DNA of 64,000 nucleotides from Candidatus Hodarchaeota archaeon (GCA_048886685.1 JBHLKM010000003.1:128001-192000); one strand, 5' to 3'. Positions 39,657 through 42,761 are shown, counted from the first letter of the stretch. Notes: generated from the letters alone by a model not told the origin. Translations and numbers: made by a program.

Positions 39657-39806
39657 ATTTTAGTTCATATGAAATATTAAATTTAAATTAAACAAAAACT
39701 AATTAATATTAGGGCTATTAATATCATAAGGTTTTTTTACACTTTTAATATGATATAACCCTAAAAGCTAAGAGAAATTCCCGAAGGAAATTATTCGTTG
39801 AGGAGA

Positions 39807-40322
39807 ATGACACAATACGATTATACGTTTAAATTAATGATGTTGGGTGATGCTTCAGTAGGAAAAACATCACTCACTCTTAGATACATCTCTGGATACT
39901 TCATGCAAGACTTAAAACTGACATTAGGCGTTGATTTCTATTCTAAGACAACGGTCTTTAACGGTAAGAAAGTTAAATTACAAATTTGGGATTTTGGTGG
40001 AGAAGAGCGATTTAGATTTCTGCTTTCTCAATATAGTAAAGGGGCAAATGGTGCCTTCTTTCTTTATGATATAACAAATCCAATGAGTCTGGAACATCTC
40101 CCAGATTGGACTCAAATTGTTAGAGAAAATGCGGGAGACATTCCAATAATGTTAATTGGTTCAAAAAAAGATTTAGATGAATTTCGAGCAGTTCCACGAG
40201 AAGATGGAATATTAGCCGCTAAAAAATATAATCTTGCTTCTTTTGTTGAACTATCTTCAAAAACAGGAGAAAATGTCGAGAAGGCATTTGATGTATTAAC
40301 TGAGTTACTTTTTGAAGATTAA
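39807..40322 (+). CDS. Rab-like small GTPase
   Basis: YDYTFKLMMLGDASVGKT, LGVDF, WDFGGEERF, GSKKD, ELSSK. Confidence 0.93.
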   Translation: MTQYDYTFKLMMLGDASVGKTSLTLRYISGYFMQDLKLTLGVDFYSKTTVFNGKKVKLQIWDFGGEERFRFLLSQYSKGANGAFFLYDITNPMSLEHLPDWTQIVRENAGDIPIMLIGSKKDLDEFRAVPREDGILAAKKYNLASFVELSSKTGENVEKAFDVLTELLFED

Positions 40323-40430
40323 TAAGATCAAAGAAGTCATTTTTTTTTTAAGATTCTTGTATTAAGCTTAAAATGATATTTACAGATTATAATAATATAG
40401 TTTAAATCGTATAAGAATAGAATGATTATT

Positions 40431-40955
40431 ATGAACGATGAAGAACCGCCAAGACCTAAAGGAATAGATACAAACATTGAAGCACCTCAAATAGATACCG
40501 TAGATATTTATGAAAATAAAATCAATTTAAGTGAGCTTCTCAAGGAATATGATGGAGTTTTAATAGATTTCTTTCGAGGAAACTGGTGAAGTCATTGTAA
40601 AAAGCATTTAAAATTGTTGACAGAAAATTTATCAGAATTTACAACGCGAAATATAAAAATAATCTCTATTGTAAGTGATAGTGTAAGATTACTGAGAACT
40701 TTTAAAGAAGAAAATAATTTTAAAGTCGATTTAATCTCTGATCGTGGTGCTAAAATAGCTAAGGAATATGATGTCTATTGGTTTGCCCCTGGAGGAGGAA
40801 AAAAATACAAAATAAAACAAGCAGTTCCAAGTAAATTTTTAATTGATAAAAAAGGAATGATTATATGGAAATATATCGGCAAAGATAAAACAGATAGACC
40901 TTCCATTGAAATGATGACATCGATTATTGATAAAAATATGAAAAATCCTAATTAA
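40431..40955 (+). CDS. Peroxiredoxin-like (AhpC/TSA, Prx-like/SelU-type) selenoprotein with in-frame UGA (UxxC)
   Basis: From ATG 40431 (or 40422) the frame reads ...LIDFFRGNW-TGA(40587-89)-SHCKKHL... and continues into the 40614 ORF. TGA occupies the first Cys of the FYRGxWCxxC motif. Confidence 0.85.
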
Positions 40956-40957
40956 GA

Positions 40958-41017
40958 ATGAATTGTGCGTGAAAAAACCGAGACGCCCGAGGACGACCCT
41001 GCAAGGGACGGGATTTA
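40958..41017 (+). ncRNA. Candidate 3'-UTR SECIS-like structured element
   Basis: GC-rich island starting 3 nt after the stop. ATGA, then GCGT/ACGC stem with an A-rich loop and GA, then CCCT-GCA-AGGG hairpin. Confidence 0.55.
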
Positions 41018-41111
41018 CTTTTCTAATTTTTTTATTGTTTTCTTAGAAAATTTTTTATTTATCATTTATTATGTATTGTTCAAAACTTAGTTTACTAAAC
41101 TTGAGAAAATT

Positions 41112-42761
41112 ATGTTTAATCGAGCATTTAAAAACTTCTTGACGAAGAAACCTTCAAAGGATGACCTATACCCCTATCTATACTCTATTGCTTTTGGAGA
41201 ATTAGGAAAACCTAAAGAAGAAATTAAAACTAAACCAATTAGATGTAGTAACTGTGATGCAATCTTCACTGATACTGATTTAATTCAGATAGATTCTCAA
41301 AAAGGTTCTTATTATGTATGTGAATTCTGTGGAACAGTCAATACAATTGATAAATCAAAGATTGAGAAAAAGCTCCCAAATGACGTTGATTTTATTTTAA
41401 TAGAAGCATTAAAAAAAGGAGCAGAAAAAGAAGAAAAAATTACAAAAATGGATAAAATCGAGGGAGATCTTTATATTTCTGTGATAGATATCTCTGGTAG
41501 TATGAGTGGTGCTAAAATTGAAGCTGTTAAGAAATCATTAATTCAGACTTTAAAAGATTATAAAATTAATTCTCCTCTCACTAAATATTTATTAATCACA
41601 TTTGAGAGCTCTGTTTACTATTATTTAAGACATGACAAAAATCCTCTAATATTTAGTGGAGATTTACTATTTTCCTTTGAAGGAATGAAAGATCAATTGA
41701 ATAAATCATTAAAAAAGGAAAAATTTTTGGGTTCCTTAGGTGAATTCGCTGATGACTGGATAAGAAAAGTAAAGAGTCTTAGATCGATGGATATGACTGC
41801 ATTGGGTCCCGCACTATATTTTGCAATTCATTCTTTTGAATTATTCAATCATACTGGAAGAATTACATTATTAACTGATGGATTAGCAAATCAAGGAATA
41901 GGAAATTTATCTGGTACTAGTCCTGTTGCTGAAAAAACTTATGAAAATATGGCGGAATTATGTAATCAATATAAAATTATTGTTGATATTGTAGGAGTAT
42001 CAGCAAGTGGAGATAATAATGAAATGGGGCTACAAACATTAGGAAAACTAACTGATAAGACAGGAGGAACATTATATTTAATATCAAGCGAAGAAATGGA
42101 AGCAATTTTTTCTGAACTTAGGCAAATGAGATATATAGCAAAAGATGTAAAGGTTAAAGTTATAGTTCCTCCCAACATTATTATCAAGAACATAACAGGT
42201 GCTTATAGCGCTAAAGGTGTTGTTGAAGGTTCTGAAATAAACTTAGGGGCGATTACAGAAGATAGGGAATTATTCTTAGAACTTGAATCGGCTAAAGAAC
42301 TAGTGGAAAAAGAAGAAGTTCCTGTACAACTTCAAGTGGAATACTTGGATAACGATGGTCGCAAGAGAATGAGAGTTATTAATGATAGAGTAAAGGTGAC
42401 AAAAGATGAAAAGAAATTTAAATCTCAATATGACCAGAGATTTAACGTAATGATGAATATCCAAGCAGCTGGAGGCAGTTTTTATGCAGGAAAAGCCAGA
42501 GAATCAAAAAAACGGTTAATAAACTTAAAACGTGAGATGTTAGCTGAATTTAATCATATGAGATCATCAGGTTTGGGTATTAGTGGACAAAATTTTTCTA
42601 AGGGATTAGCTTATCTAGATGATGAATTGGAGGAAATTGAGATGGAAGAAGAAAAAGCAGCTCATGCTCCGACACAAAGCTACTGGGCAGTTAAAGGTCA
42701 AAAAAGAGCAAGAATTTCCTCAAGTGCTCTAAAAAAACGGATGGAAAAGAAGAAAAAATAA
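41112..42761 (+). CDS. Sec23/Sec24-like protein (Zn finger + vWA trunk + beta-sandwich)
   Basis: PIRCSNC...YVCEFCGTVN zinc finger, DISGSM MIDAS, TALGPAL, LLTDGLANQGIG, TGGT, QLQVEY...RMRV. Confidence 0.78.
   Translation: MFNRAFKNFLTKKPSKDDLYPYLYSIAFGELGKPKEEIKTKPIRCSNCDAIFTDTDLIQIDSQKGSYYVCEFCGTVNTIDKSKIEKKLPNDVDFILIEALKKGAEKEEKITKMDKIEGDLYISVIDISGSMSGAKIEAVKKSLIQTLKDYKINSPLTKYLLITFESSVYYYLRHDKNPLIFSGDLLFSFEGMKDQLNKSLKKEKFLGSLGEFADDWIRKVKSLRSMDMTALGPALYFAIHSFELFNHTGRITLLTDGLANQGIGNLSGTSPVAEKTYENMAELCNQYKIIVDIVGVSASGDNNEMGLQTLGKLTDKTGGTLYLISSEEMEAIFSELRQMRYIAKDVKVKVIVPPNIIIKNITGAYSAKGVVEGSEINLGAITEDRELFLELESAKELVEKEEVPVQLQVEYLDNDGRKRMRVINDRVKVTKDEKKFKSQYDQRFNVMMNIQAAGGSFYAGKARESKKRLINLKREMLAEFNHMRSSGLGISGQNFSKGLAYLDDELEEIEMEEEKAAHAPTQSYWAVKGQKRARISSSALKKRMEKKKK

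Follow-up and report, generated by a model that had tools for sequence, protein, structure and literature searches.

In the 64,000-nucleotide stretch of a Candidatus Hodarchaeota archaeon genome analysed here (GCA_048886685.1, JBHLKM010000003.1:128001-192000; hereafter the window), two short open reading frames (ORFs) lie in one frame on either side of a TGA codon, raising the question of whether this codon ends a gene or is read as an amino acid. A preliminary description had taken the two ORFs for a single peroxiredoxin-like (Prx-like) selenoprotein gene with selenocysteine (Sec) at the redox-active position. On the evidence described below, it is very probable that both ORFs belong to one gene, prxL, which encodes the PrxL selenoprotein and carries a lokiSECIS element. 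The gene is a missed annotation of a published family and not a discovery.

Gene Structure and Genomic Context

Translation with table 11 divides the prxL frame into a 55-aa ORF (40422-40589) and a 113-aa ORF (40614-40955). When it is read through, a single frame runs from the ATG at 40422 to the TAA at 40953-55 and contains exactly one internal stop, the TGA at 40587-89, which sits within the motif FFRGNW-[TGA]-SHC. The second in-frame ATG, at 40431, is the start shared with most relatives, which begin at MNDEEPP; the residue numbers used here (Sec56, Cys59 and residues 56-59 for the box U-S-H-C) are those of the 177-residue form starting at ATG 40422. In Pfam, the read-through product matches AhpC-TSA (1e-21, 77.6 bits with the cut-off at 26, residues 20-149) and Redoxin (6e-16, 59 bits, above the cut-off), both matches spanning the TGA, and this agreement is far beyond chance. 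The preliminary description had claimed one continuous frame from ATG 40431 with a single TGA at 40587-89, a gene split by the ORF caller and a protein of the AhpC/TSA Prx-like kind, and all three points are confirmed by the translation, by the two table 11 ORFs and by the Pfam matches across the TGA. Just 3' of the prxL stop, the GC content peaks at 55% (40960-41019), in surrounding DNA of 15-35% GC. The features of the locus, together with the Sec genes of the same genome, are collected in Table 1.

Regarding the neighbourhood, a 'eukaryotic signature' gene lies on each side of prxL: upstream, a Ras-family small GTPase (39798-40322, + strand; Pfam Ras, 3e-45) and, downstream, a gene (41112-42761, + strand) for a protein with a zinc-ribbon and the Sec23/Sec24 trunk and beta-sandwich domains (1e-10 and 6e-9). 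A GTPase-like coding sequence (...LQIWDFGGEERFRF...) is also located about 1 kb upstream of prxL in two relatives (L043 and L045).

Table 1. Position of the prxL features in the window and of the selenocysteine genes on contigs C1, C12 and C13 of the genome.
Feature	Position	Strand	Details
prxL coding sequence	40431..40955	+	174 codons including one Sec; stop TAA at 40953-55; a start at ATG 40422 would add 3 residues
UGA, almost certain Sec codon	40587..40589	+	First position of the U-S-H-C box, at the N-terminus of predicted helix 56-68
TGT, sole Cys of the protein	40596..40598	+	Second redox-box position; aligns with the peroxidatic Cys of BCP/PrxQ
Lower helix (predicted), 5' strand	40943..40949	+	Lies in the last Asn-Pro codons; base-paired (40943-48 with 41011-16) in the minimum free energy (MFE) fold
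AUGA, 5' half of the SECIS kink-turn core	40958..40961	+	Invariant in 35/35 aligned elements; begins 2-3 nt past the TAA
SECIS upper stem and apical loop	40963..40990	+	40963-70 with 40983-90, 8 positions, one U-C mismatch
SECIS 12-nt apical loop, GAAAAAACCGAG	40971-82	+	A-rich; leading A-run invariant in the alignment
GA, 3' half of the SECIS core	40992..40993	+	Second-position A invariant; first-position G in at least 90%
Small GC-rich hairpin, GACCCU-GCA-AGGGAC	40995..41009	+	Directly 3' of the core; covariation as helix 2
Lower helix (predicted), 3' strand, GGGAUUU	41010..41016	+	From the MFE fold and the pair table
T-rich tract, probable archaeal oligo-T terminator	41020..41047	+	T-run about 5-20 nt after GGGAUU, here and in relatives
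tRNA-Sec, anticodon TCA	C1:221073-221165		Found with aragorn; scores 63 bits for Rfam RF01852, whose cut-off is 47
SepSecS	About 200 nt from the tRNA-Sec gene		Passes the cut-off, with 482.8 bits
EFSec-like GTPase	About 4 kb further on than SepSecS		selB is the top-scoring family, with 238 bits where the cut-off is 242
PSTK-like kinase	C12		selen_PSTK ranks first among families (1e-39, matched along the full length); 136 bits against an NCBIfam equivalog cut-off of 290
selD, two tandem genes	C13:56676-58803	+	Both pass the cut-off and each contains a single in-frame TGA

Conservation of the TGA Codon

The six-frame search for prxL homologues took in 398 genomes of the phylum and found matches in 112 of them, including 42 of the 51 genomes of the genus and 86 of the 132 of the family. 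Within the order, at identities from 86% down to about 31%, all matches possess one to three in-frame TGAs, bar three partial matches lying outside the Sec column; no in-frame TGA occurs in the matches, of 25-33% identity, from other families in the phylum. At the column that the preliminary description had proposed to inspect for TGA or Cys among Asgard homologues, the codon alignment has TGA in 27/27 close orthologues, and the motif F[FY].G.W-U-xx-[CU] is present in 30/30 fetched loci, the relatives compared not being independent samples. The search of the 398 genomes found no Cys form at this column in the order, and the relatives within the order have neither a sense codon nor a frame disruption at the TGA site. 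The column is Cys in a distant, TGA-free homologue of the CxxC type (genome G055; FYRGGW-C-PNC), and Thr or Ser in the true BCP peroxiredoxins of other Asgard families (FYPADF-T/S-xxC). As for the other half of the redox box, the Cys at its second position is the only one in the whole protein, and exactly one Cys is also present in 25 of the 27 orthologues.

The median dN/dS relative to the window gene is 0.17 over the 59 codons 5' of the TGA and 0.09 over the 123 codons 3' of it, at a median dS of 1.1-1.4 in these comparisons; therefore, both halves of prxL are translated and constrained. The relaxed selection on the flanks that had been considered as a sign against the selenoprotein is absent, both values indicating purifying selection. 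Taken with the SECIS element described below, the TGA conserved through the order and the Cys of the distant CxxC homologue uphold the earlier placement of Sec at the redox-active position: the TGA at 40587-89 is almost certainly a Sec codon, and we infer from this comparative evidence that Sec is inserted there.

A genuine stop codon, with the locus either degenerating as a pseudogene or holding two small genes, one for a peptide of 55 aa and one for a truncated redoxin of 113 aa, would explain why table 11 yields two ORFs and why the public annotations of relatives list only a C-terminal piece of 100-119 aa; such a piece, however, would be devoid of the entire redox box. This reading is also opposed by the retention of the TGA at one column in more than 100 genomes despite saturated synonymous sites, by the constraint on the codons upstream of it, by the lack of any sense codon or frame disruption at the site within the order and by the presence of a SECIS and of the full Sec machinery, making it extremely improbable.

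Mishandling of the TGA in Public Annotation

Counted among the protein collection hits (P0001-P0120), more than 80 database relatives are fragments of 100-119 aa that start just past the TGA, represent the C-terminal two thirds and are deprived of the active site, being labelled as 'redoxin domain-containing protein' in metagenome-assembled genomes of Lokiarchaeota, Promethearchaeota and Thorarchaeota. Meanwhile, about 40 full-length homologues (170-195 aa) read Trp at the Sec column (GNW-W-SHC), some of them extending through the SECIS as fake C-terminal tails, and their contigs reproduce these entries only when TGA is translated as Trp.

Those full-length entries speak for a TGA read as Trp or another standard residue, either by genome-wide reassignment or by near-cognate read-through. 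However, TGA is an ordinary stop elsewhere in this genome, where it ends 225 of the 1,682 long ORFs (13%), and it also terminates prxL itself in six relatives (L028, L034, L037, L040, L048 and L049), in which a sense codon stands in place of the TAA and the frame extends by two codons, to the UGA of the AUGA core. One mRNA in these relatives then holds both a Sec-UGA and a stop-UGA, and the use of AUGA as a stop codon was described in 2016 for VhuU.1 (PMC4989117). Additionally, the sole tRNA with a UCA anticodon found in the genome is tRNA-Sec, the column is Cys and not Trp in the TGA-free CxxC homologue, and a Trp within the redox box would abolish function. A standard residue at this position is thus scarcely credible, and the W calls of the database most likely arose as artefacts when a genetic code was chosen for short contigs. 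Together, the Trp-reading entries and the truncated fragments are marks of a TGA mishandled by gene callers, and the public predictions of the PrxL family are systematically wrong.

Selenocysteine Machinery

The genes for tRNA-Sec, SepSecS, a PSTK-like kinase, an EFSec-like GTPase and SelD, which had been named as components to be confirmed, are all found in the genome (Table 1). The PSTK-like and EFSec-like proteins were assigned by best-family rank and full-length coverage, because the NCBIfam models were trained on methanogens or bacteria. The duplication of Sec-containing selD genes is common in Loki- and Thorarchaeia, according to the 2024 survey (PMC11227280). In the proposed mechanism, the UGA at 40587-89 would be decoded by this tRNA-Sec, delivered by an EFSec of the archaeal/eukaryotic type.

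SECIS Element

Judged by comparative sequence analysis, the element located 3' of prxL is a eukaryote-like lokiSECIS of type I with covarying helices; the preliminary description had not noticed it. The 35 aligned relatives have a common layout, TAA-GA-AUGA-N-[8-nt stem]-[A-rich loop]-[8-nt stem]-N-GA-C-[small GC hairpin]-UU-GGGAUU-[T-run], and in the window gene the upper stem reaches 9 positions if the A-G beside the core is counted, and the apical loop has 12 nt against 11 nt in most relatives. The element also agrees with the original description of lokiSECIS, where the stem has 9 bp and the loop, beginning with adenines, 11 nt (PMC4989117). All features of the type I eSECIS-like model, as listed in section 7 of PMC11227280, are present, with a GA_[G/A]A core, a stem of 7-15 bp with at most two mismatches and a loop of 8-20 nt; one relative has AA in place of the core GA, which the published model accepts in the 3' half of the core (PMC11227280).

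In the upper stem, 93.2% of the cells of the alignment are paired and 7/8 pairs are changed on both sides, and in the small 3' hairpin at 40995-41009 (helix 2), the corresponding values are 84.8% and 3/6 pairs. For both helices jointly, the observed covariation was reached by 0/500 shuffles, and sliding the 3' partners lowers the pairing from 89.6% to 31-56%. RNAalifold independently predicts the upper stem and the 3' hairpin. The support for the SECIS is of a comparative kind only, since folding 40950-41030 gives an MFE no better than that of shuffles (z = 0.51) and the Rfam search of the whole window at the gathering score gave no match to a SECIS or other RNA. Standard SECIS models are described as missing lokiSECIS by Mariotti et al. 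(2016; PMC4989117). The same region was also compared with the euryarchaeal SECIS type, which was rejected: the GC-rich hairpin at 40995-41009 has a symmetric A/A mismatch and not the 5'-GAA...A-3' bulge.

Decoding of the UGA would be directed by this lokiSECIS, situated about 370 nt downstream, through its AUGA/GA kink-turn core, its upper stem of 8-9 positions and its A-rich loop. In this gene, two further parts would belong to the SECIS, namely the small hairpin on its 3' side and a lower helix to which the last Asn-Pro codons contribute.

Possible Extended Structure at the Gene End

Positions 40942-41023 give a three-way MFE fold, in which the lower helix is formed by 40943-48/49 with 41010/11-16. 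Across the 35 relatives, the pairing AAUCC[CU]/[GA]GGAUU has a mean of 5.7 paired positions out of 6, with three double changes from C-G to U-A and four U-G pairs. The Pro codon of this helix is CCC in 28 of the 35 relatives and CCU in the other 7, never CCA or CCG, and CCC makes up 12% of the Pro codons genome-wide. The lower helix and the CCC bias suggest that the end of the ORF is constrained at the RNA level, in a helix that is nearly invariant and in which the covariation is thin. It is possible, if still somewhat doubtful, that the functional signal is, in contrast to the simple hairpin of published models, a three-armed RNA composed of the lower helix from the Asn-Pro codons (AAUCCC/GGGAUU), the kink-turn with its upper stem and the GC hairpin. 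Compared with the published PrxL and SECIS models, the lower helix within the last codons and the additional 3' hairpin are not mentioned in the available parts of the two papers (PMC4989117, PMC11227280).

Related Elements in the Same Genome

A covariance model (R1) was built from the PrxL SECIS elements, giving the window copy 79 bits. Besides this copy, R1 matches SECIS elements downstream of two HdrA-VhuD pairs, at C6:148055 and C2:241613 (E 3e-5 and 5e-4), whose HdrA-like and FlpD/VhuD families, with multiple in-frame TGAs, are confirmed by Pfam; the small trailing GC hairpin is also present after the SECIS of these pairs. The fourth match (C2:362217-362297, - strand, locus L067) has an E-value of 0.008, and directly 5' of it lies a small ORF whose product has a single hydrophobic segment and contains GGG-U-VC; the frame ending in the AUGA of this match is not open, the GGG-U-VC ORF being in another frame.

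In addition, the genome was scanned for the SECIS shape with a regular expression, which is noisy (74 matches against 36 in the reversed-genome control) and was used only for picking candidates, followed by R1. The stretch at C7:172057-172092 (- strand, locus L071), near a contig end, is SECIS-shaped, having an AUGA, a perfect 8-bp stem, an A-rich 12-nt loop and a GA; no selenoprotein gene was recognised upstream of it, and it is not among the R1 matches at E <= 1.

Fold and Proposed Mode of Action

The AlphaFold model of PrxL (pLDDT 88.3, pTM 0.85) places Sec56 at the N-terminus of the helix 56-68, after the strand 45-51. The nearest structures found by Foldseek are archaeal BCP/PrxQ proteins (Bcp4, 3hjp, TM 0.79/0.87), with ResA-type proteins close behind, and a sequence search against structures ranks them likewise, BCP/PrxQ (2ywn, 3hjp and 2cx3; E 1e-11 to 2e-10) coming first, followed by the ResA type. 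In the alignment to 2ywn, 3hjp and 2cx3, Sec56 is matched to the Thr of PxxxTxxC and Arg52 to its Pro, Cys59 occupies the place of the peroxidatic Cys, and the catalytic Arg of BCP/PrxQ aligns with Gln133, or with Pro136 if ungapped; the typical peroxiredoxin signature (PxxxT/SxxC plus catalytic Arg) is therefore absent from this alignment. The best NCBIfam matches are ResA (48.5 bits), SelL-related redox protein (47.9 bits) and BCP/thiol peroxidase (46 bits), all of them far under the cut-offs.

PrxL has no hydrophobic N-terminus, signal peptide or membrane anchor, and it is predicted to be cytoplasmic because of the missing hydrophobic N-terminus. Thus, prxL would encode a cytoplasmic protein of about 174 residues with a BCP/PrxQ-like thioredoxin fold and the box Sec-Ser-His-Cys. 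Sec56, at the N-terminus of the helix, would act as the attacking nucleophile and Cys59 would resolve the intermediate, in a selenenylsulfide cycle. The substrates may belong to the disulfides, the sulfenic acids or possibly the peroxides, and the chemistry would be of the thiol/disulfide type and not that of a canonical Thr-Cys-Arg peroxidase. As the peroxiredoxin signature is missing and the U-x-x-C box is of the thioredoxin type, a selenenylsulfide oxidoreductase appears to be the likeliest mechanism, and PrxL is probably an oxidoreductase rather than a peroxidase, as far as the position of the motif alone can tell.

The same gene, with the same Sec decoding, could instead encode a peroxidase, in which Sec56 or Cys59 would reduce H2O2 or organic hydroperoxides in the oxygen-stress defence of anaerobes, Sec56 acting as in glutathione peroxidase or Cys59 from the BCP/PrxQ peroxidatic position. 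Sec enzymes are efficient peroxidases, the nearest sequences and folds of PrxL are those of BCP/PrxQ peroxiredoxins, Cys59 is aligned with their peroxidatic Cys, and thiol peroxidase is one of the three best NCBIfam families, with its 46 bits. However, the signature is lost at each of its positions, where Pro is replaced by Arg, Thr by Sec and the catalytic Arg by Gln133 or Pro136; ResA and the SelL-related family score as well as BCP, all three far below their cut-offs; and Mariotti et al. group the protein with Prx-like CxxC proteins that do not have the typical Prx features (PMC4989117). A peroxidase is hence rather unlikely, and an oxidoreductase of the thiol/disulfide type remains the preferred assignment. 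The term 'antioxidant-type' used in the preliminary description is too loose for the evidence, since the peroxiredoxin catalytic signature is absent and the box is thioredoxin-like.

Relation to Known Families

As described by Mariotti et al. (2016, Mol Biol Evol), Lokiarchaeota possess a PrxL.2 protein with one Sec, at the first redox-box position, and a PrxL.1 protein in which both Cys of the redox box are replaced by Sec (PMC4989117). The same paper describes these proteins as having no other Cys, and the lokiSECIS as lying near the ORF end, where it can overlap the coding sequence; the Prx-like UxxC protein is one of the five selenoprotein families published there for Lokiarchaeota, and the PrxL family is stated to be without biochemical characterisation (PMC4989117). 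In the survey of Huang, Xiao and Zhang (2024, ISME J), Prx-like selenoproteins are present in 43.2% of the Sec-using Asgard genomes, mostly with type I elements (PMC11227280). The novelty implied in the preliminary description is consequently not sustained, as the Prx-like UxxC selenoprotein had already been published (PMC4989117) and occurs in that share of the Sec-using Asgard archaea (PMC11227280). Among the five widespread selenoprotein families of Asgard archaea, to which the 2024 survey adds two rare ones (PMC11227280), PrxL alone is missing from euryarchaeal selenoproteomes.

The window gene resembles PrxL.2 (PMC4989117), or prxL in the later nomenclature (PMC11227280), in its Prx-like fold, its single Sec placed first in a CxxC-type box without Cys elsewhere, its type I lokiSECIS near the ORF end (AUGA_GA core, stem of about 9 bp, A-rich loop) and its Loki-type Asgard host with full Sec machinery. 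Nothing essential differs, the loop having 12 nt here against 11, in a comparison made with the published descriptions. The gene matches PrxL.2 in all defining features tested and is a correct rediscovery of a known family.

PrxL.1 (UxxU) belongs to the same family and has the same SECIS, whereas the window gene retains a Cys at the second box position. In four relatives (L038, L044, L045 and L046, in genomes G181, G177, G201 and G220), a UxxC prxL is followed about 200 nt on by a UxxU paralogue, the two having about 60% identity and each its own SECIS; the codon of the second-position Cys is TGA in these UxxU paralogues. The genome studied here has no UxxU copy at E <= 1e-10. Two distant members of the family (G271:C10:33587-34057 and G213:C25:28109-28492; L062 and L063) carry three in-frame TGAs, those of a UxxU box and a third one. 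The diselenide redox box is also known from eukaryotic SelL (Shchedrina et al. 2007, as cited in PMC4989117), and the window protein has the NCBIfam 'SelL-related redox protein' as one of its best matches.

Regarding other relatives, archaeal BCP/PrxQ proteins (Sulfolobus Bcp4, 3hjp; S. tokodaii, 2ywn/4g2e; Aeropyrum, 2cx3) are the best sequence and structure matches, and their peroxidatic Cys corresponds to the box Cys; however, PxxxTxxC reads RGNWUSHC in the window protein, the catalytic Arg is absent and the identity is only 20-25%. The proteins of the ResA/TlpA type and the bacterial Prx-like selenoproteins share with it the Redoxin fold and a W-C/U-x-x-C box at a helix N-terminus. A further likeness is the segment V-P-S/T-x-F-L-I-D, which resembles a cis-Pro loop; ResA is the top NCBIfam match, and there are PDB matches too, but the window protein is devoid of a signal peptide or membrane anchor. 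The bacterial Prx-like selenoproteins (Zhang and Gladyshev 2008, as cited in PMC4989117) differ in having a bacterial SECIS within the ORF and not a kink-turn SECIS at the 3' side.

The window thus adds one more well-documented instance of the known PrxL family, and the recognition of prxL gives back to the proteome of a Lokiarchaeon a redox-active selenoprotein, with a value that is mainly for annotation. The only possible increment over the literature is the extended three-armed SECIS overlapping the last codons. If this reading is true, the C-terminal '...NPN' and the rare CCC codon would be kept by RNA structure and not by protein function, and the terminating ribosome would have to unwind the base of the SECIS.
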